Of a stretch of 64,000 bases of DNA, positions 2,942 to 63,435 are shown in pieces. Each line of letters begins with the position of its first letter. The stretch's first letter is position 1. The stretch comes from Escherichia coli 042. GTDB lineage: Bacteria > Pseudomonadota > Gammaproteobacteria > Enterobacterales > Enterobacteriaceae. The stretch lies in the NCBI RefSeq assembly GCF_000027125.1, contig NC_017626.1, one strand, 5' to 3'. Made by a program: the position numbers and the translations under genes. The notes under the pieces are model-generated. The model did no database searches, was not told the DNA's origin, and saw nothing but the letters and a program-made list of their open reading frames with translations.

Positions 2942-3706
2942 ATGCGTTCGATTGCCAGACGTACCGCAGTGGGAGCTGCACTATTGCTTGTTATGCCAGT
3001 AGCCGTATGGATTTCTGGCTGGCGTTGGCAACCTGGAGAACAAAGTTGGCTACTAAAAGCGGCTTTTTGGGTTACTGAAACTGTCACCCAGCCCTGGGGC
3101 GTCATTACACATTTGATTTTATTCGGTTGGTTTCTCTGGTGTCTGCGTTTTCGCATTAAGGCTGCCATTATGTTATTTGCCATTCTGGCGGCGGCAATCC
3201 TTGTGGGACAAGGCGTTAAATCCTGGATCAAAGACAAAGTCCAGGAACCACGACCTTTTGTTATCTGGCTGGAAAAAACACATCATATTCCGGTTGATGA
3301 GTTCTACACTTTAAAGCGAGCAGAACGCGGAAATTTAGTGAAAGAACAGTTGGCTGAAGAGAATAATATCCCACAATATTTGCGTTCACACTGGCAGAAA
3401 GAGACGGGGTTTGCCTTTCCTTCCGGTCACACGATGTTTGCTGCCAGTTGGGCGCTGCTGGCCGTTGGTTTGCTGTGGCCGCGTCGGCGAACGTTAACTA
3501 TTGCTATCTTGCTGGTCTGGGCAACCGGAGTCATGGGAAGCCGCCTGCTGCTCGGGATGCATTGGCCACGCGATCTGGTGGTAGCTACGTTAATTTCGTG
3601 GGCGCTGGTGGCGGTGGCAACGTGGCTTGCGCAACGAGTTTGTGGGCCATTAACACCACCTGCGGAAGAAAATCGCGAAATTGCACAACGAGAACAAGAA
3701 AGTTAA
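2942..3706 (+). CDS. pgpB: Phosphatidylglycerophosphatase B (PAP2 family)
   Basis: 254-aa membrane protein with PAP2 motifs (PSGH, SRLLLGMHWPRD); follows ribA as expected. Confidence 0.92.
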   Translation: MRSIARRTAVGAALLLVMPVAVWISGWRWQPGEQSWLLKAAFWVTETVTQPWGVITHLILFGWFLWCLRFRIKAAIMLFAILAAAILVGQGVKSWIKDKVQEPRPFVIWLEKTHHIPVDEFYTLKRAERGNLVKEQLAEENNIPQYLRSHWQKETGFAFPSGHTMFAASWALLAVGLLWPRRRTLTIAILLVWATGVMGSRLLLGMHWPRDLVVATLISWALVAVATWLAQRVCGPLTPPAEENREIAQREQES

Positions 3707-3854
3707 CGCTGGTTGATTTTCCGAATTTAGCCCTTAAATCATCAACAATGCGCGTGGATGCCATTTCGCAGACGGCGCGAAAATGGTACTTTAAAGGGCT
3801 ATTGCGGTAAGTTGACCATAATTTATTCGCTCTAACCACATAACGGGAAGTAAT

Positions 3855-4163
3855 GTGAAATATTTACTCATTTTCTTACTGGTGTTAGCGATCTTCGTGA
3901 TTTCGGTCACGTTGGGTGCGCAGAACGATCAACAGGTGACGTTTAATTATCTGTTAGCGCAAGGGGAGTACCGTATTTCCACATTGCTGGCGGTATTGTT
4001 TGCTGCGGGGTTTGCTATCGGTTGGCTGATTTGCGGCCTGTTCTGGCTGCGAGTTCGTGTTTCCCTGGCGCGCGCTGAACGTAAAATAAAGCGACTGGAA
4101 AACCAGCTTTCACCCGCGACTGACGTGGCTGTAGCGCCGCATTCGTCAGCGGCGAAGGAATAA
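3855..4163 (+). CDS. lapA: LPS assembly protein LapA (YciS)
   Basis: 102-aa small membrane protein, GTG start, directly upstream of lapB. Confidence 0.88.
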   Translation: MKYLLIFLLVLAIFVISVTLGAQNDQQVTFNYLLAQGEYRISTLLAVLFAAGFAIGWLICGLFWLRVRVSLARAERKIKRLENQLSPATDVAVAPHSSAAKE

Positions 4164-4169
4164 CTTTCT

Positions 4170-5339
4170 ATGCTGGAGTTGTTGTTTCTGCTTTTGCCTG
4201 TAGCCGCTGCTTATGGCTGGTATATGGGCCGCAGAAGTGCGCAACAAAACAAGCAAGATGAAGCCAACCGCTTGTCGCGTGATTACGTAGCGGGGGTTAA
4301 CTTCCTGCTTAGTAATCAACAGGATAAAGCGGTAGACCTGTTTCTCGATATGCTTAAAGAGGATACGGGTACCGTTGAAGCCCACCTTACGCTCGGAAAC
4401 CTGTTCCGTTCGCGTGGCGAAGTTGATCGCGCTATTCGCATCCATCAGACCCTAATGGAAAGCGCCTCGCTGACCTATGAACAGCGTCTGTTGGCGATTC
4501 AACAACTGGGGCGTGATTACATGGCCGCCGGGTTATACGACCGCGCGGAAGACATGTTCAATCAACTGACCGATGAAACTGACTTCCGCATTGGCGCGCT
4601 GCAACAGTTGCTACAAATCTACCAGGCTACCAGCGAGTGGCAGAAAGCAATTGATGTTGCCGAACGCCTGGTGAAGCTGGGTAAAGATAAGCAGCGCGTC
4701 GAAATTGCTCATTTCTACTGCGAGTTAGCCCTACAGCATATGGCCAGCGACGATCTCGATCGTGCCATGGCCTTGTTAAAAAAAGGTGCGGCGGCAGATA
4801 AAAACAGCGCCCGCGTATCCATCATGATGGGACGCGTATTTATGGCGAAAGGAGAATACGCCAAAGCCGTCGAAAGTTTGCAACGCGTGATATCCCAGGA
4901 CAGAGAACTGGTCAGCGAAACGCTGGAAATGCTGCAAACCTGCTACCAGCAGTTGGGTAAAACTGCCGAATGGGCAGAATTCCTGCAGCGCGCGGTGGAA
5001 GAGAACACCGGTGCCGATGCTGAACTAATGCTTGCGGACATCATCGAAGCGCGCGACGGTAGTGAGGCCGCACAGGTCTATATTACGCGTCAGCTTCAGC
5101 GTCATCCGACCATGCGTGTGTTCCATAAGCTAATGGATTACCACTTAAATGAAGCGGAAGAAGGGCGTGCCAAAGAGAGTCTGATGGTGCTGCGGGACAT
5201 GGTTGGCGAGAAGGTGCGTAGTAAGCCTCGTTATCGCTGCCAGAAATGTGGTTTTACCGCATATACCCTCTACTGGCATTGTCCGTCTTGTCGGGCCTGG
5301 TCAACCATTAAACCGATTCGCGGTCTTGATGGCCTGTAA
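4170..5339 (+). CDS. lapB: LPS assembly protein LapB (YciM), TPR and rubredoxin-like C-terminus
   Basis: 389 aa; TPR-like repeats and C-terminal CQKCG...CPSC metal-binding motif. Confidence 0.93.
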   Translation: MLELLFLLLPVAAAYGWYMGRRSAQQNKQDEANRLSRDYVAGVNFLLSNQQDKAVDLFLDMLKEDTGTVEAHLTLGNLFRSRGEVDRAIRIHQTLMESASLTYEQRLLAIQQLGRDYMAAGLYDRAEDMFNQLTDETDFRIGALQQLLQIYQATSEWQKAIDVAERLVKLGKDKQRVEIAHFYCELALQHMASDDLDRAMALLKKGAAADKNSARVSIMMGRVFMAKGEYAKAVESLQRVISQDRELVSETLEMLQTCYQQLGKTAEWAEFLQRAVEENTGADAELMLADIIEARDGSEAAQVYITRQLQRHPTMRVFHKLMDYHLNEAEEGRAKESLMVLRDMVGEKVRSKPRYRCQKCGFTAYTLYWHCPSCRAWSTIKPIRGLDGL

Positions 5340-5530
5340 TTTTTAAAAAAATCCGACTTTAGTTACAACATACTAATTATTGATGTTCCATTGTGCTCCG
5401 GTAACTCGGGCGCAGAAAAGCCTGCCAGGGGAGAAATCGCAACTGTTAATTTTTTATTTCCACGGGTAGAATGCTCGCCGTTTACCTGTTTCGCGCCACT
5501 TCCGGTGCCCATCATCAAGAAGGTCTGGTC

Positions 5531-6268
5531 ATGACGTTAACTGCTTCATCTTCTTCCCGCGCTGTTACGAATTCTCCTGTGGTTGTTGCCCTTGATTATC
5601 ATAATCGTGATGCCGCGCTGGCCTTTGTCGACAAGATCGACCCACGCGATTGTCGTCTGAAAGTCGGCAAAGAGATGTTTACGCTGTTTGGACCTCAATT
5701 TGTACGCGAACTTCAACAGCGTGGTTTTGATATCTTCCTCGACCTGAAATTTCACGATATTCCCAACACTGCAGCGCACGCTGTCGCTGCTGCAGCTGAC
5801 TTAGGCGTGTGGATGGTGAATGTTCACGCCTCCGGTGGGGCGCGTATGATGACCGCAGCGCGTGAGGCACTGGTTCCGTTTGGCAAAGATGCACCGCTTT
5901 TGATTGCTGTGACAGTATTGACCAGCATGGAAGCCAGCGACCTGGCCGATCTTGGCGTGACACTGTCACCTGCAGATTATGCAGAACGTCTGGCAGCACT
6001 GACGCAAAAATGTGGCCTTGATGGTGTGGTGTGTTCTGCTCAGGAAGCTGTGCGCTTTAAACAGGTATTTGGTCAGGAGTTCAAACTGGTTACACCGGGC
6101 ATTCGTCCGCAGGGGAGTGAAGCTGGTGACCAGCGCCGCATTATGACGCCAGAACAGGCGTTGGCGGCTGGTGTTGATTATATGGTGATTGGTCGCCCGG
6201 TAACGCAATCGGTAGATCCAGCGCAGACGCTGAAAGCGATCAACGCCTCTTTACAGCGGAGTGCATGA
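5531..6268 (+). CDS. pyrF: Orotidine-5'-phosphate decarboxylase
   Basis: 245 aa from internal Met ([22 protein letters not shown]...); ORF track start at 5471 is an upstream in-frame extension. Confidence 0.92.
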
Positions 6269-6594
6269 TGAGTGATTCCAACAGCCGTCTGGTCTACTCA
6301 ACGGAAACCGGACGTATTGATGAGCCAAAAGCGGCCCCTGTACGCCCTAAAGGCGACGGTGTGGTGCGTATTCAGCGTCAGACCAGTGGACGTAAAGGTA
6401 AGGGCGTTTGCTTGATTACCGGTGTCGATCTCGATGATGCCGAACTGACAAAACTGGCAGCGGAACTGAAGAAAAAATGCGGCTGCGGCGGAGCAGTTAA
6501 AGATGGAGTTATTGAAATCCAGGGCGATAAGCGTGATTTATTAAAATCACTGCTTGAAGCGAAAGGGATGAAGGTAAAACTCGCAGGCGGTTAA
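6265..6594 (+). CDS. yciH: SUI1/eIF1-family translation factor YciH
   Basis: 109-aa ORF overlapping the pyrF stop by 4 bp (translational coupling). Confidence 0.9.
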
Positions 6595-6597
6595 CAT

Positions 6598-6627
6598 AAA
6601 AAGCCACGGATATATCCGTGGCTTTCG
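6598..6627 (+). terminator. Rho-independent terminator after yciH
   Basis: Hairpin agccacgga-tata-tccgtggct followed by a T-run. Confidence 0.55.
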
Positions 6628-6719
6628 AATATTTTACTGTGTGTATTATTCAGTTATTTCGTACTGAACAGAATCAAGCGTATTATAATTGCGAGTCGAT
6701 AATCGACATTTATTTACGA

Positions 6720-6938
6720 TTATTTACCGACCTGGTGACCAATAACACCACCGACAGCTGCGCCACCTAATGTACCCAGCGTACTGCCATCGGTCAGTAC
6801 TGCACCGCCTAATGCACCTGCACCCGCGCCAATTGCGGTGTTACGGTCTCGTTTAGACCAGTTAGAACAGGCACTCAGAGACATTGCCAGGGTAATTGCC
6901 AGAACAGCTGCGGTCATTTTTTTGCTCGTTACAAACAT
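6720..6938 (-). CDS. osmB: Osmotically inducible lipoprotein B
   Basis: 72 aa; signal peptide with lipobox (LSAC) and Gly-rich repeats. Confidence 0.9.
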   Translation of the reverse strand: MFVTSKKMTAAVLAITLAMSLSACSNWSKRDRNTAIGAGAGALGGAVLTDGSTLGTLGGAAVGGVIGHQVGK

Positions 6939-7206
6939 AATACTCTCTCCTGAATTTATGATTCACGGAAGTAAGCTCTCTATAACTATAATAGCTAAGA
7001 ATAAGCCGGGTGAAATTATTCCGTGAAATCCGCTCGCGCGCAGGGTTATATCACGCAGGTGATAATGACTTCCTGTTATATCGCTGATAATAATTTTATA
7101 TCTTGAGAGTGTTAATAACAGGTAAATAGTCTTAATTATCAACCAGGAATCATCTTAGAGCGGATGATTTGCCAAAGTGCAAATCATCCATAGAGAAGGG
7201 AAATGG

Positions 7207-7956
7207 TTAAATGTCAACGACGTGAACGGTGAGTTTACTGTGCTCAAGATGCATCAGATCGCTGGCGCGTATTTTCGAATCGGTAATCACGCGATTGAAT
7301 CGCTCAACGGGGCCGATGGAGTATGAATGTACAGCACCAAATTTCGAGCTGTCAGTCAGGACTATCGCTTCGCACTCTTTTTCCAGCACGGCATTGACCA
7401 CATCGGTACGCATCATATCGCGACCGGTAAACCCAGTTTCAGGTTGCCAGCCATCAATACCAATAAATGCTTTGCTGAAATGCACCTGTTGGATGCACTG
7501 GCGTGTCAAAGGGCCAACCATACTTTCGCTTTTTTTCTGGTACACGCCACCGAGCAAAATAACTTCACAAGGCGCGTCTTTCAGCAAATGCGCGATGTAG
7601 CTGCTGACCGTGATGATAGTGACATTTTTCTTCTGCTCGCCCAGAGTCCGGGCGAGCAGGGCATTGCTGCTGCCATTTTCGATAAAGATGGTTTCGCCCG
7701 GTTGAACCAGTGACGCGGCAAACTCGGCGAGTTCACGCTTCAGCGTATAGTTGCTCATCATACGAGTTTCGACGTCATCACTATCAAGCGATACTGCAAA
7801 GCCATGTGCACGGCGGAGGTAACTCAGTTTTTCGAGGGTGTTGAGATCCTGGCGAATGGTAACTTCAGAAACTCCAGTGGCTTTTGCCAGATCGGTTACG
7901 CTAACCTGACCCTGGTCAATGACCATCTGTAGAATAGTTTGTTGTCGGGAATTCAT
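7207..7956 (-). CDS. yciT: DeoR-family transcriptional regulator
   Basis: 249 aa; N-terminal HTH ([20 protein letters not shown]) plus DeoR C-terminal domain. Confidence 0.88.
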
Positions 7957-46641: not shown

Positions 46642-47320
46642 CAAATGCGCCTATAAGGCTCTCTTACCAGCCGCGCCCTAACAGGCGCACACGATCTGAC
46701 ATTTGCATCCAACTTCGTTACTTACGGCCCGTAAACGGGCTGCCCGGATAGGGAATCGATAACTGCTCTCCCATTTTATCCTCTTCAAGCTGGTGCTTTA
46801 TGTAATCCTGTATCTTCGCCGTGTTCTTACCCACCGTATCGACGTAATACCCTCTGCACCAGAACTCCCTGTTCCTGTATTTGAATTTCAAATCACCAAA
46901 CTGCTCGTAAAGCATCAGACTGCTTTTCCCTTTCAGATATCCCATAAAGCCTGATACGCTCATTTTGGGCGGGATCTCCACAAGCATATGGATATGATCT
47001 GCACAGCATTCAGCTTCCAGAATCCGTACACTTTTCCACTCACACAGCTTTCTCAAAATACAGCCTATTGCTCTACGCTTCTCTCTGTAGAACACCTGTC
47101 TTCGGTATTTTGGCGCAAATACTATGTGATATTTACAGTTCCATCGGGTGTGCGCTAAGCTCTTTTCGTTCCCCATTGGGACCCCCTTTTGATTTCTTGT
47201 TTGACACTTGCAGTTGCCAGACCGCAAGGTGTTTTAACAAATCAAAAGGGGTTTTAATAACTGGCTCAAAGCTGAAAGCTTTCCGGAACCCCCAGCCTAG
47301 CTGGGGGTTTTCTGTGCACA
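46640..47320 (-). mobile_element. IS200-family (IS200/IS605) insertion sequence; boundaries approximate
   Basis: Contains an IS200-type tnpA; left-end hairpins on the IS strand (cccccagctaggctggggg at 47290-47308 and an RBS-sequestering inverted repeat ccccttttgattt / aaatcaaaagggg); lies between the ynaJ and uspE terminators. Confidence 0.8.
46718..47176 (-). CDS. tnpA: IS200-type Y1 (HUH) transposase TnpA
   Basis: 152 aa from MGNEKSLAHTRWNCKYHIVFAPKYRR...; HUH motif (ADHIHML) and catalytic Tyr region (RGYYVDTVG). Confidence 0.9.
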   Translation of the reverse strand: MGNEKSLAHTRWNCKYHIVFAPKYRRQVFYREKRRAIGCILRKLCEWKSVRILEAECCADHIHMLVEIPPKMSVSGFMGYLKGKSSLMLYEQFGDLKFKYRNREFWCRGYYVDTVGKNTAKIQDYIKHQLEEDKMGEQLSIPYPGSPFTGRK

Positions 47321-52950: not shown

Positions 52951-54260
52951 CAGATACCTCGCGTCCAGGGAAAATTGAGCGCGGTGCGCGCCAGCGTTTC
53001 GACGGCAATAGCGAGAACCTGCTCGTCAAAATCGAATTTTTCGTTGTGATGACCTGCCGCCAGCTGTGTGCCAAACACCATATAGGAGGCTTGCCCTTGA
53101 TGTTGCTGCACGCGGGCCATCATTAATGTGGCATCTTCGGAACCCGCAGGCGCTTCAACACGTTCAATGGCTTGATTGACCCCCGGGACCTGAGCTGCCT
53201 GACTTTGCAACCATGCGACCCATTGCGGCGAAGGAGAACTGGCGGTAGCTGCACCCATCAGACGAGTTTCAACGCCGACACCATACATGGTTGCTGCGCC
53301 CTGAATCGCTTGTTGTGCACGTTCAAAAACATATTGATTAATGACGTCGCTGGCCCCGCGTGTTTCCACTTTCAGCAACGCTGAGGCGGGAACAACATTA
53401 CGACCGCTTCCTGCCTGCATAACGCCCACGTTTACTCTGGAAGCGCCTTCGCTGTGCGGGGCGATTGCATGCAGTGCAAGAGTTGCTTGTGCTGCCGCCA
53501 ACAAGGCATTGTGACCGTCTTCTGGTTTTGCGCCTGCGTGAGCGGCGGTCCCGGTGAAGTGCGCGTCAAATTTGGTGGTTGCCATAAAATTATCACTGCC
53601 GCACACCACGGTGCCCGCAGGTACGCCAGTGCCAATGTGCACGGCAGTAAAATAATCAACATCATCCACTACACCTGCATCGACCATCGCCCGCGCGCCA
53701 CGCGTACCTTCTTCTGCAGGTTGAAAAATCAGTTTGATGACGCCATGTAGTCCGGACTCGAACTGTTTAAGGGTATGCGCCAGCCCAAGTCCAATGGCGG
53801 TATGTCCATCATGACCACAGGCATGCATCATTCCGGCGTTACATGACGCAAAACCGTCGCGGTAGGGGCGATGGCTGACATCCCGTTCTTCACTGAGATC
53901 CAGCGCGTCCATATCGACACGGAAAGCCATCACCGGACCGGGGCGACCGGTATCCAGGGTAGCGACGATGCCAGTGAAACCGCCTTCAAAAGCCGCAATC
54001 CATTGTTCTAGCGCACCCTGTTGACGAGCGCGCTCGAATTCGCGTTGTAGAGTGAATTCATCAGGTAATCCCATCCGGCTACTTTCATTAACTACTTCGC
54101 GGCCCAGCGCCAGTGAATAACCGAGCTGGTGCAATTCTTCCGCAACAAGGGTGGCAGTGCGGAATTCCACCCAGCCAGACTCTGCATAGTGGTGAAAATC
54201 ACGTCGCCAGTGCGATAATTTTGGGGCAAGCGAATTAATAAATTGATTCAAAGACTCCAT
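52950..54260 (-). CDS. abgA: p-Aminobenzoyl-glutamate hydrolase subunit A (M20 peptidase)
   Basis: 436 aa from MESLNQFINSL...; upstream of and coupled to abgB. Confidence 0.9.
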   Translation of the reverse strand: MESLNQFINSLAPKLSHWRRDFHHYAESGWVEFRTATLVAEELHQLGYSLALGREVVNESSRMGLPDEFTLQREFERARQQGALEQWIAAFEGGFTGIVATLDTGRPGPVMAFRVDMDALDLSEERDVSHRPYRDGFASCNAGMMHACGHDGHTAIGLGLAHTLKQFESGLHGVIKLIFQPAEEGTRGARAMVDAGVVDDVDYFTAVHIGTGVPAGTVVCGSDNFMATTKFDAHFTGTAAHAGAKPEDGHNALLAAAQATLALHAIAPHSEGASRVNVGVMQAGSGRNVVPASALLKVETRGASDVINQYVFERAQQAIQGAATMYGVGVETRLMGAATASSPSPQWVAWLQSQAAQVPGVNQAIERVEAPAGSEDATLMMARVQQHQGQASYMVFGTQLAAGHHNEKFDFDEQVLAIAVETLARTALNFPWTRGI

Positions 54261-54435
54261 AACCTTTCCCGTCATCAGTAAAAAGTGTGACCCGGTTCAC
54301 GTAGCGATAGTTTTTACTTATCACTAACTGATTTTTCACAGTTTTAACCGTTCATAAATTACCCTGACACAATCATCTGCATTAAAGTAGATGCCAGTTT
54401 CTTTGGTCTGATAAATAACGGTTATCGGTGGCGTC

Positions 54436-55344
54436 ATGGCTTTTCAGGTAAAAATTCATCAAATTCGGGCTTTTGTTGAAGTGGCTCGTCAGGGCAGCAT
54501 TCGCGGAGCGAGCCGAATGTTGAATATGTCGCAACCGGCACTGAGTAAATCTATTCAGGAGCTGGAAGAAGGGTTGGCGGCACAACTCTTTTTTCGCCGT
54601 AGTAAAGGCGTGACGTTAACTGATGCCGGTGAAAGTTTTTATCAGCACGCCAGTCTTATTCTTGAAGAGCTGCGCGCAGCGCAAGAGGATATTCGCCAAC
54701 GACAAGGGCAACTGGCAGGGCAAATTAATATCGGCATGGGGGCCAGTATTTCCCGCAGTCTGATGCCAGCTGTCATATCTCGTTTTCATCAGCAGCATCC
54801 GCAGGTAAAAGTACGCATTATGGAAGGGCAACTGGTATCGATGATTAATGAATTGCGCCAGGGGGAACTGGATTTCACCATCAATACCTATTATCAGGGA
54901 CCCTACGACCACGAATTTACTTTTGAGAAATTACTGGAAAAGCAATTCGCGATCTTTTGCCGCCCGGGACATCCCGCCATTGGTGCCCGTTCGATCAAAC
55001 AGTTACTGGACTACAGCTGGACAATGCCGACGCCACACGGCAGCTACTACAAACACTTGAGTGAATTGCTTGACGATCAGGCGCAAACGCCACAGGTCGG
55101 CGTAGTCTGCGAGACGTTCTCAGCCTGTATCAGTCTGGTGGCAAAAAGCGATTTTCTCAGCATACTACCTGAAGAAATGGGCTGCGATCCCTTGCACGGA
55201 CAGGGGCTGGTGATGTTGCCGGTTAGCGAAATTTTACCGAAAGCGACCTATTATTTGATTCAGCGGCGTGATAGTCGCCAGACACCACTGACCGCGTCAT
55301 TAATCACGCAATTTCGGCGAGAATGCGGCTATCTGCAAAGTTAA
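54436..55344 (+). CDS. abgR: LysR-type regulator AbgR
   Basis: 302 aa; LysR HTH; divergent from abgA. Confidence 0.9.
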   Translation: MAFQVKIHQIRAFVEVARQGSIRGASRMLNMSQPALSKSIQELEEGLAAQLFFRRSKGVTLTDAGESFYQHASLILEELRAAQEDIRQRQGQLAGQINIGMGASISRSLMPAVISRFHQQHPQVKVRIMEGQLVSMINELRQGELDFTINTYYQGPYDHEFTFEKLLEKQFAIFCRPGHPAIGARSIKQLLDYSWTMPTPHGSYYKHLSELLDDQAQTPQVGVVCETFSACISLVAKSDFLSILPEEMGCDPLHGQGLVMLPVSEILPKATYYLIQRRDSRQTPLTASLITQFRRECGYLQS

Positions 55345-55673
55345 AACTGCATAAAAAAATAGAGTCTGTCGACATCCGCCAGACTCTACAGTACACACAG
55401 CAGTGCATCCGCGTCTTAAATCCGGCATGGTCTCCTCTGCGCCGGTGACTGTGTTATAACGGTTTTAACCTTTAGTTGCCAATTTTCTTCAGTGACAGAT
55501 TTCACGAAAATATAAGTTACATTATTAATATCGTGAATGAATAATCATGCATAAGCATTTTGCTTAAAATATCGGCAATATTTGGAACTTATTACTGGAA
55601 ATTTGGGTAATACGTTGTTGGACCGACCCGGTCTGGTTATCATATCGCGCTCTTAATTGCGGGAGGATGTAAC

Positions 55674-56237
55674 ATGAACCTTGACGACAAATCGCTGTTT
55701 CTTGACGCCATGGAAGATGTCCAGCCGCTGAAACGTGCTACAGATGTCCACTGGCATCCAACGCGTAACCAACGTGCGCCGCAGCGTATCGACACGCTGC
55801 AACTTGATAATTTCCTCACCACTGGATTTCTCGACATCATCCCGCTAAGTCAGCCGCTGGAGTTTCGGCGGGAAGGGTTGCAACATGGGGTGCTGGATAA
55901 GCTGCGCAGTGGTAAATATCCGCAACAGGCGAGCCTGAATCTTTTGCGCCAGCCGGTGGAAGAGTGCCGCAAAATGATGTTCAGTTTCATTCAACAAGCC
56001 ATGGCGGATGGTTTGCGTAATGTGCTGATTATTCATGGTAAAGGGCGGGAAGATAAATCGCATGCCAATATTGTCCGCAGCTATGTGGCGCGCTGGCTGA
56101 CCGAATTTGATGATGTTCAGGCATATTGCACCGCGCTACCGCATCATGGCGGCAGCGGGGCGTGTTACGTCGCACTACGTAAAACGGCGCAGGCGAAGCA
56201 AGAAAACTGGGAGCGCCACGCTAAGCGCAGTCGTTGA
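55674..56237 (+). CDS. smrA: Smr-domain DNA endonuclease SmrA (YdaL)
   Basis: 187 aa with C-terminal Smr domain (LIIHGKG). Confidence 0.88.
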   Translation: MNLDDKSLFLDAMEDVQPLKRATDVHWHPTRNQRAPQRIDTLQLDNFLTTGFLDIIPLSQPLEFRREGLQHGVLDKLRSGKYPQQASLNLLRQPVEECRKMMFSFIQQAMADGLRNVLIIHGKGREDKSHANIVRSYVARWLTEFDDVQAYCTALPHHGGSGACYVALRKTAQAKQENWERHAKRSR

Positions 56238-56257
56238 TCTCGAGACGCATCCGCGGC

Positions 56258-57490
56258 TTATGCCGCCAGCACGCGGTTGCGTCCATCATTTTTCGCCCGA
56301 TACAAAGCATCATCAACGCGTTTAAACAGTTCATCGATGCTTTCATTTCCTTCGTGATGCGCCACACCAATGCTGACGGTAAAGCGTGGTAAGCCCGAAA
56401 TACTCACTTTTGCCACGCTTACGCGGATAGTTTCAGCCAGCGAAAGCGCGGTATCCAGTGGGGTTCTTGGTAGCAATAAGACAAACTCTTCGCCTCCCCA
56501 ACGAAACACCAAATCGCCTTTGCGAGCGCAACTTTCGAGGGGGCGGGCGAGGGCGCATAACACCTCATCACCTTTAGAATGCCCATAGAGATCGTTAATG
56601 TGTTTAAAACGATCGGTGTCGATGAGCAATAAGCTGTAATCCTGAGCGATGGCGAGGTGCTGCATTTGGCCTGGCTCGGTAATGTGGTAAAACTGTCGCC
56701 GATTCAGTAATCCGGTCATCGCGTCATGGTGGGCAGCATGTTCCAGCTGCTCCTCCAGCCGTTTTTGCTCAGTAATATCATGCACAATACATAACATGAG
56801 CTTGTCGCCATAAATTTCAATCGGCCCGGCATAGGTCTGCACATGACGAGTCGAACCATCCGCCAGTTTATGAACAAAATTCAAAGGCTTATGGCCACCG
56901 GGTAAATGCGAAATTTCATGCATGATAGGCATGACGCGTCGCCCGAGCATATTTATTTCCCAGGTATGTTTCTGGCACATCGTTTCATGGTTATAACCAT
57001 AGAAATTGAGCGCGGCGAGGTTAGCATCGACGATTTGTCCATCTCGTGACGGGTCAATCAACAACATTGGTGCAGAGTTAGTCAGAAAAAAGCGCGCATA
57101 AAAACCTTGTTTTTTGCGCTGATAATTTGCCGAGCGACTGGCTTTTAAACCCAGCGTTGCCGGTGCTTCGATACCTTCGAAAATAATCACCGGTTCTGCT
57201 TCTGTCAGCTTTCGCAAAACAAGCCGACAGCTCAATGCTGTTTCCTCTTCATTGCGCTGAACGGTGAGGATTTCGATAATATCGTGTTGGTTTTGCAGAT
57301 CGGAGAGGTATTTTGGCAGTTCTTTTTGTGAGGAGACGGAATAGGGACCGGTTCGTAGCTGACTAAACGTGAGGTCTTGCATCAACAGTCGCGCCGCGCT
57401 ATTGGCATAAATTAACTGTTCCTCAAAGGGCGAAACGATCCAGACAGGACTGGTGAGTAAGTCCAGGGTATTGAAGTTGTGCGTAATCAT
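56258..57490 (-). CDS. dgcM: Diguanylate cyclase DgcM (YdaM), PAS-PAS-GGDEF
   Basis: 410 aa from MITHNFNTLDLL...; GGEEF active-site motif (RWGGEEFVLL). Confidence 0.9.
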   Translation of the reverse strand: MITHNFNTLDLLTSPVWIVSPFEEQLIYANSAARLLMQDLTFSQLRTGPYSVSSQKELPKYLSDLQNQHDIIEILTVQRNEEETALSCRLVLRKLTEAEPVIIFEGIEAPATLGLKASRSANYQRKKQGFYARFFLTNSAPMLLIDPSRDGQIVDANLAALNFYGYNHETMCQKHTWEINMLGRRVMPIMHEISHLPGGHKPLNFVHKLADGSTRHVQTYAGPIEIYGDKLMLCIVHDITEQKRLEEQLEHAAHHDAMTGLLNRRQFYHITEPGQMQHLAIAQDYSLLLIDTDRFKHINDLYGHSKGDEVLCALARPLESCARKGDLVFRWGGEEFVLLLPRTPLDTALSLAETIRVSVAKVSISGLPRFTVSIGVAHHEGNESIDELFKRVDDALYRAKNDGRNRVLAA

Positions 57491-58823: not shown

Positions 58824-58950
58824 GCAGGTGAATGCAACGTCAAGCGATGGGCGTTGCGCTCCATATTGTCTTACTTCCTTTTTTGAATTACTGCATAGCA
58901 CAATTGATTCGTACGACGCCGACTTTGATGAGTCGGCTTTTTTTTGCCTG
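58824..58950 (+). ncRNA. fnrS: FNR-activated Hfq-dependent small RNA FnrS
   Basis: Sequence matches my recollection of FnrS (gcaggtgaatgcaacgtcaagcgatgggcgttgcgctccatattgtcttacttcc...) and ends in the terminator gacgccgactttgatgagtcggcttttttt; lies between zntB and dbpA. Confidence 0.85.
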
Positions 58951-63246: not shown

Positions 63247-63435
63247 TCACGACGACTGAAGTTTCTCGCAATTAAAATTTATCAGTTTTACTTTCTGCTC
63301 TCTGGAAACGCCTGCTTCTTTTTTACCTGAGAGCATTTTTTCGCATTCTGATTTGGTTAATTTTGTTTTTGAGTACCTTGTCCAGTTAGTAGGAGTGCCA
63401 CCTTCCTTTTCAATAGTGGCGGTAATTTTATACAT
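63247..63435 (-). CDS. ydaC: Rac prophage protein YdaC/RcbA-like
   Basis: 62 aa from MYKITATIEKEGGTPTNWTRYSK...; assigned by position. Confidence 0.6.
   Translation of the reverse strand: MYKITATIEKEGGTPTNWTRYSKTKLTKSECEKMLSGKKEAGVSREQKVKLINFNCEKLQSS

Follow-up and report, generated by a model that had tools for sequence, protein, structure and literature searches.

The genes abgR and smrA of Escherichia coli 042 lie on the plus strand of a 64,000-nt stretch of contig NC_017626.1, which is called the window in the following. Exactly 329 bp (55345-55673) separate the two genes. AbgR has 302 amino acids and 99 % identity to AbgR of K-12, and its stop codon ends at 55344; SmrA, with 187 amino acids and 98 % identity to the K-12 protein, starts at 55674. 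The original prediction, made by reading the bare sequence, had described the interval as an unusually long, AT-rich gap in a same-strand gene pair, and both the exact coordinates and the base composition agree with this description: the G+C content is 40.1 % in the gap vs 50.4 % in the window, and only 4 % of all 329-bp windows are equally AT-rich. The composition is uneven within the gap, with 51 % G+C in 55351-55446, 35 % in 55447-55673 and 26 % in 55507-55614. The AT-richness is thus caused by the right part, especially by the stretch from 55507 to 55614, while the left 100 bp have a G+C content of 51 %. For two neighbours on the same strand this is a large distance, yet the gap is occupied by a third gene in opposite orientation. 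The features of the region are collected in Table 1.

Table 1. Features of the abgR-smrA region in the window; RNA nt count from the predicted 5' end of McaS, negative positions lie upstream of it
Feature	Position	Strand	Basis
abgR (LysR-type regulator), left gap boundary	54436..55344	+	ORF; K-12 annotation
mcaS (isrA / IS061), sRNA gene, 96 nt	55351..55446	-	Rfam RF00115; K-12 ncRNA b4426
U7 run ending the RNA	55353..55359	-	sequence
Stem-loop 3, predicted intrinsic terminator hairpin (RNA nt 58-88), GGA in loop	55359..55389	-	folding; conservation
csgD mRNA seed (RNA nt 40-55, UGCACUGCUGUGUGUA)	55392..55407	-	complementarity to K-12 csgD 5' UTR
Stem-loop 2 (RNA nt 33-52), GGA at nt 37-39	55395..55414	-	covariance model; alignment
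Stem-loop 1 (RNA nt 2-25), AGGA motif in loop, variable part of the RNA	55422..55445	-	covariance-model structure, alignments
Predicted mcaS -10 hexamer TATAAC (-12 to -7)	55453..55458	-	sequence; kept in Escherichia and Citrobacter
Predicted mcaS -35 hexamer TTGGCA (-36 to -31), 18-bp spacer	55477..55482	-	sequence, conservation
CRP-like site CGTGAAATCTGTCACT, centred at -52.5	55491..55506	-	8/10 matches to TGTGA-N6-TCACA
Conserved block, TGATTTAACTTA-like (in the window TGTAACTTATAT), about -66 to -77 of mcaS	55511..55522	-	conservation
AT-rich (26 % G+C) spacer between the divergent promoters	55507..55614	.	composition, alignment
Putative smrA promoter TTGTTG-17-TATCAT	55615..55643	+	conservation; below consensus-scan threshold
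smrA Shine-Dalgarno sequence GGGAGGA	55661..55667	+	sequence; conserved
smrA (ydaL), Smr-domain endonuclease, right gap boundary	55674..56237	+	ORF; K-12 annotation

A search with the Rfam covariance models, proposed as a check together with the original prediction, was run for positions 54000-57000 against all families with permissive filters and returned one significant match. This was RF00115 (McaS/IsrA), covered in full length (model positions 1-96 of 96) with 117 bits vs a gathering score of 42 and an E-value of 1.8e-22. A scan of the whole window gave RF00115 again. Other sRNA families above their gathering scores in the window were STnc490 (47186-47309, minus strand), FnrS (58824-58941, plus strand) and RalA (63251-63429, plus strand), the latter being the antitoxin RNA of the RalR system of the Rac prophage. 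In the K-12 reference, the ncRNA mcaS (b4426) is annotated between abgR and smrA, on the minus strand at 1405658-1405751; with the offset set by the abgR stop codon, this is equivalent to window positions 55353-55446. PMC8313858 lists in its supplement a 96-nt mcaS on the reverse strand (1405656-1405751), which maps exactly to 55351-55446. Locus, length and strand relative to abgR and smrA are all alike in both strains, and 95 of the 96 bases are identical; nt 18 in the loop of stem 1 is C instead of A. The full-length family match and the equivalent place of mcaS in K-12 bear out the small RNA IsrA/IS061 that the original prediction had named for this locus. We conclude, with a probability of about 97 %, that the gap contains mcaS as a free-standing sRNA gene of 94-96 nt, which lies on the minus strand in convergent orientation to abgR and in divergent orientation to smrA. 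Its transcript ends are predicted from the covariance model, the K-12 annotation and sequence signals; the examined text of the Term-seq supplements of Adams 2021 had no entry for mcaS, smrA or abgR.

The 329-bp region was found in 5386 of 5426 complete E. coli genomes, and it is 100 % identical in many other isolates. In comparison to K-12, the window has 12 substitutions across 929 bp around mcaS. That the family match represents merely a decayed or silent relic of mcaS, unexpressed in this strain, is extremely improbable: K-12 expresses the RNA, and the window agrees fully with K-12 in promoter, CRP-like site, all four GGA motifs, csgD seed and terminator; the sole change affects one loop base, in a sequence shared without any difference by many other isolates. 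In PGAP-annotated RefSeq genomes no feature lies under the mcaS match, which explains why the gap looked empty to a reader of the bare sequence. McaS has been characterised since 2012. With its Rfam family and its K-12 annotation, mcaS at this locus is an already known gene, real but ordinary.

The absence of a plausible ORF from the gap, also part of the original prediction, stands. Mechanically, three ORFs of 29-41 amino acids touch the gap, at 55416-55505 (minus strand, GTG start, 29 aa), 55545-55643 (minus strand, 32 aa) and 55323-55448 (plus strand, 41 aa, start within abgR), and an unannotated small protein could be encoded by one of them. We give this hardly any credence, since none is annotated in K-12, though genes as tiny as ynaN have been annotated close by, since the underlying sequence contains indels and is poorly conserved between genera, and since two of these ORFs share bases with mcaS or its promoter.

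According to the structure line of the covariance model, McaS consists of three stem-loops, of which the third forms an intrinsic terminator together with the adjoining U run. Stem-loop 3 folded with -15.8 kcal/mol (z = -4.45), and none of 200 shuffled sequences folded equally well. In 16 homologues 100 % of the cells of this helix were paired, with compensatory double changes at three pairs, and it was the only stem that RNAalifold recovered on the sequence-only alignment. For stems 1 and 2, 63 % and 83 % of the cells were paired in this alignment, with little clean covariation in either; the variation in stem 2 was one-sided only (G-C to G-U type). These values agree with the published high variability of the 5' third of McaS, including stem 1 (PMC4824073). 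The minimum-free-energy fold of the whole RNA, which differs in the 5' half from the Rfam consensus, was set aside for stems 1 and 2. A simple consensus terminator scan flagged no terminator, its rules excluding the bulged mcaS hairpin; the terminator and promoter calls for mcaS were based on covariance model, folding and conservation in place of the consensus scan. Four GGA motifs are present (RNA nt 12-14, 24-26, 37-39 and 70-72), of which the one at alignment columns 37-39 shows no variation among 16 homologues. Their number matches the four copies published for the binding of CsrA by McaS (PMC10729762).

Transcription of mcaS would end at the hairpin and the U7 run, 6-8 nt from the abgR stop codon. 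On the strand of the abgR transcript (window 55345-55400) the terminator hairpin begins 15 nt past this stop codon. A bidirectional terminator that also serves abgR was considered and rejected, the plus-strand hairpin (-15.9 kcal/mol) being followed by CAGUACACACAG and not by a U run. For abgR itself no intrinsic terminator is evident, and transcription from abgR may thus continue into mcaS in antisense direction.

At the other end of the gene, transcription would start at 55446 from a sigma-70 promoter, TTGGCA-18-TATAAC. The hexamers with their spacing and the CRP-like site upstream are identical to K-12. In a divergent E. coli allele, described below, the -35, -10 and CRP-like elements are unchanged while bases between and around them differ. 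The assignment of the -10 hexamer fits an up-mutation of RL strains, in which a C-to-T exchange in the isrA -10 box leads to overexpression of IsrA (PMC4824073, supplement): TATAAC has a single C, and its exchange would give TATAAT. The consensus promoter scan missed TTGGCA-18-TATAAC; its rules require T at position 6, and the two promoter-like sites that it reported are unrelated to mcaS. Besides the putative smrA promoter, the gap holds start and stop signals in the form of the minus-strand promoter and the hairpin/U-run terminator, in line with the original prediction.

The core GTGA-N6-TCAC of the CRP-like site occurs four times in 64 kb vs 0.9 expected occurrences. The site is kept in 11 homologues of Escherichia and Citrobacter, and its spacing to the -10 hexamer is invariant. 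Another exact GTGA-N6-TCAC (GTGACCCGGTTCAC) is located at 54287-54300 in the divergent intergenic region of abgA and abgR, where it may be a site for a CRP-type or another regulator. CRP-dependent promoters have the activator centred at -41.5 in class II and at -61.5 or further upstream in class I. With a predicted centre at -52.5, the mcaS site would not occupy a classical class I or class II activation position. Activation of mcaS by CRP is known (PMC3634460), and a CRP element at mcaS has been published (PMC3634460; PMC4824073, supplement). Compiled K-12 RNA-seq data gave log2 values of -4.3 and -4.5 for mcaS in delta-crp, a drop of about 20-fold (PMC8313858). The sequence CGTGAAATCTGTCACT is a candidate for the published element, matching at the level of the motif, with the functional dependence coming from K-12 data only. 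A weak second pair of half-sites, an inverted repeat near -93.5 of mcaS, was observed in Escherichia only.

Upstream of the CRP-like site, the 12-bp block TGATTTAACTTA (the form of most homologues) is kept in all four genera, including the Pseudescherichia group with its degenerate CRP half-sites, and TTTAAsTTA is found at -75/-74 of mcaS in 10 homologues. The site at -52.5 with its invariant spacing, the conserved block from -66 to -77 and the divergence of mcaS and smrA in four genera might together reflect an unusual CRP geometry, a second regulator, or a coordinated control of mcaS and smrA from a shared region, a speculative reading to which we assign a low probability.

The 55447-55673 stretch of about 230 bp is an AT-rich and poorly conserved control region between the divergent genes mcaS and smrA. 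The spacer alignment comprised 13 loci, 11 of which, from four genera, had no insertion before smrA. Within it, the 108 bp of 55507-55614 are poorly conserved and variable in length, and they host lineage-specific insertions. Close to smrA, GGGAGGA and a TTGnnn-17-TATnnT block are conserved in the 11 loci, and the spacing of the block is invariant. This pattern suggests a weak sigma-70 promoter for smrA about 30 bp before the ATG, which would give a 5' UTR of about 23 nt.

An extended 5' UTR of smrA was the second possibility besides an sRNA in the original prediction, and such a conserved putative promoter close to the ATG speaks against a long, structured leader. The gap would then consist mostly of a regulatory 5' leader, e.g., a riboswitch, attenuator or thermosensor, transcribed from a plus-strand promoter far upstream, and the promoter scan detected on the plus strand GTTACA-18-AATAAT at 55516-55545, from which a leader of about 120 nt would arise. 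However, the scan reported two promoter-like sites vs 1.4 expected by chance. Even at E <= 1 no Rfam family matched the plus strand, and the segment 55538-55680 folded no better than its shuffles (z = -1.2). Between genera the stretch differs in length and shows poor conservation, while the TTGnnn-17-TATnnT block is kept. Finally, around 1450 E. coli genomes have replaced everything upstream of 55664 by other genes and retain smrA. A long leader is therefore unlikely. The prediction of an sRNA or an extended 5' UTR thus held for the sRNA, which is encoded on the minus strand and takes up 96 of the 329 bp; the extended UTR appears unsupported, having neither a family match nor a significant fold on the plus strand, a variable sequence, and a promoter-like block about 30 bp before the ATG.

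The sRNA gene and its divergent arrangement with smrA recur in related genera. A pattern scan of species-representative genomes yielded 13 loci, each with an RF00115 match of 70-109 bits, in E. albertii, E. whittamii, further Escherichia, Citrobacter amalonaticus, Pseudescherichia vulneris, Trabulsiella and an unclassified Enterobacteriaceae genome. Synteny, analysed with tblastn for 15 loci of four genera, revealed mcaS divergent from smrA wherever the flank on the smrA side was covered, and the distance from the mcaS 5' end to the smrA ATG was 227-258 bp in loci without insertions. In the loci outside the window, the neighbour on the 3' side of mcaS was ogt wherever this flank was covered, so that abgRABT of most E. 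coli is an insertion between ogt and mcaS. The conserved unit is mcaS-smrA, and the abg genes were inserted beside an older ogt-mcaS-smrA arrangement. An analysis of this kind has already been published, with a presence table for ydaL, isrA and abgR (PMC4824073, supplement). The pattern scan of species-representative genomes, conducted with a strict pattern, recovered no Salmonella locus, consistent with the published absence of McaS from Salmonella (PMC3634460).

Two variants of the mcaS-smrA spacer were observed within E. coli. The first is a strongly divergent allele present in about 1456 of the 5386 complete genomes (~27 %), e.g., in JJ2434 and APEC O18; the region concerned comprises window positions 55131-55663, equivalent to 3641-7819 of the JJ2434 locus. 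Over 55131-55552 it has 80 % identity to the window, vs 98-99 % in the remainder of the genome. In this allele abgRAB is gone, leaving a 3' remnant of abgR and a fragment of abgT; mcaS and its promoter are kept (112.8 bits in Rfam), and a 3.6-kb block coding for an AraC regulator, HlyD and an MFS efflux protein lies between the mcaS promoter and smrA. An identity of 99 % resumes at 55664, 10 nt before the smrA ATG, and smrA is thus preceded by other sequence in these strains. E. whittamii has kept a 32-aa remnant of the AraC gene. The second variant occurs in strain PK13, where a 10.4-kb island is inserted in the spacer. It carries genes for an integrase, a RepA-type helicase, a major capsid protein, a head decoration protein and a small terminase, and resembles a phage satellite (PICI-like). 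The island is flanked by a 16-bp direct repeat identical to window positions 55521-55536 (ATTATTAATATCGTGA); on one side of the insertion the promoter of mcaS and the CRP-like site are preserved, on the other side the putative promoter of smrA.

With respect to mRNA targets, McaS nt 40-55 are a perfect Watson-Crick complement of 16 nt to the K-12 csgD 5' UTR at -96 to -81. In 300 dinucleotide-shuffled controls the longest complement averaged 6.6 nt and never exceeded 10 nt. The nucleotides 45-57 of McaS are invariant in 16 homologues. The seed corresponds to the distal binding site 1 on csgD, which is required in vivo (PMC6061853). For flhD the longest contiguous complement had 7 nt, equal to shuffles, in a test that is blind to the published split and imperfect pairing over two regions; the McaS regions involved in that pairing are identical to K-12. 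RNAduplex calculations with full McaS against the csgD and flhD leaders had given unrealistically long duplexes that were not above shuffles (z = -1.3 and -1.7), and were replaced by the test for contiguous complementarity.

Due to the identity of the functional elements with K-12, we infer that mcaS is probably expressed and acts in strain 042 as in K-12. Under nutrient limitation, cAMP-CRP would induce McaS, which would act in trans as an Hfq-dependent base-pairing RNA (PMC6061853, PMC4824073). Pairing with the csgD mRNA would lead to RNase E-dependent cleavage and repression of curli (PMC6061853), and, following the literature, an activation of flhDC translation would promote flagella and motility. 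The GGA motifs would bind and titrate CsrA, relieve the repression of pgaA and so raise the expression of pgaA and PGA. McaS is further known as a component of particles that contain Hfq, S1, ProQ, PNPase and the RNA polymerase core. Dependence on CRP, binding of Hfq and CsrA, and the regulatory outcomes are taken from the literature; worked out here were the RNA family, the strand and boundaries of the gene, the RNA structure, the motifs of promoter and terminator with their conservation, the complementarity to csgD and the synteny.

Among known regulatory RNAs, CsrB and CsrC likewise bind CsrA with GGA motifs in loops, and the literature describes McaS as the weaker CsrA sponge. CsrB has about 22 GGA motifs vs four in McaS, which in addition pairs with mRNAs via Hfq; CsrB and CsrC belong to a different Rfam family and have no sequence relationship to McaS. 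CyaR and Spot 42 are, as McaS, trans-acting Hfq sRNAs that respond to cAMP-CRP and possess their own promoter and intrinsic terminator, but their sequences and targets are unrelated. In contrast to both, the CRP-like site of mcaS, centred at -52.5, would be situated just upstream of the -35 element without overlap. The csgD 5' UTR is also paired by RprA, GcvB, OmrA/B, RydC and RybB, which differ from McaS in genes, loci, regulators and seed sequences. RprA, GcvB and McaS trigger cleavage in the same A/U-rich region of csgD (PMC6061853).

As a discovery, mcaS at this locus has little weight; it is a gene that automatic annotation omits. The value of the analysis lies in the exact strand and boundaries of mcaS in this strain, in a map of the parts of the 329 bp between abgR and smrA, in the comparative picture of the locus and in the two variants of the spacer at the population level.
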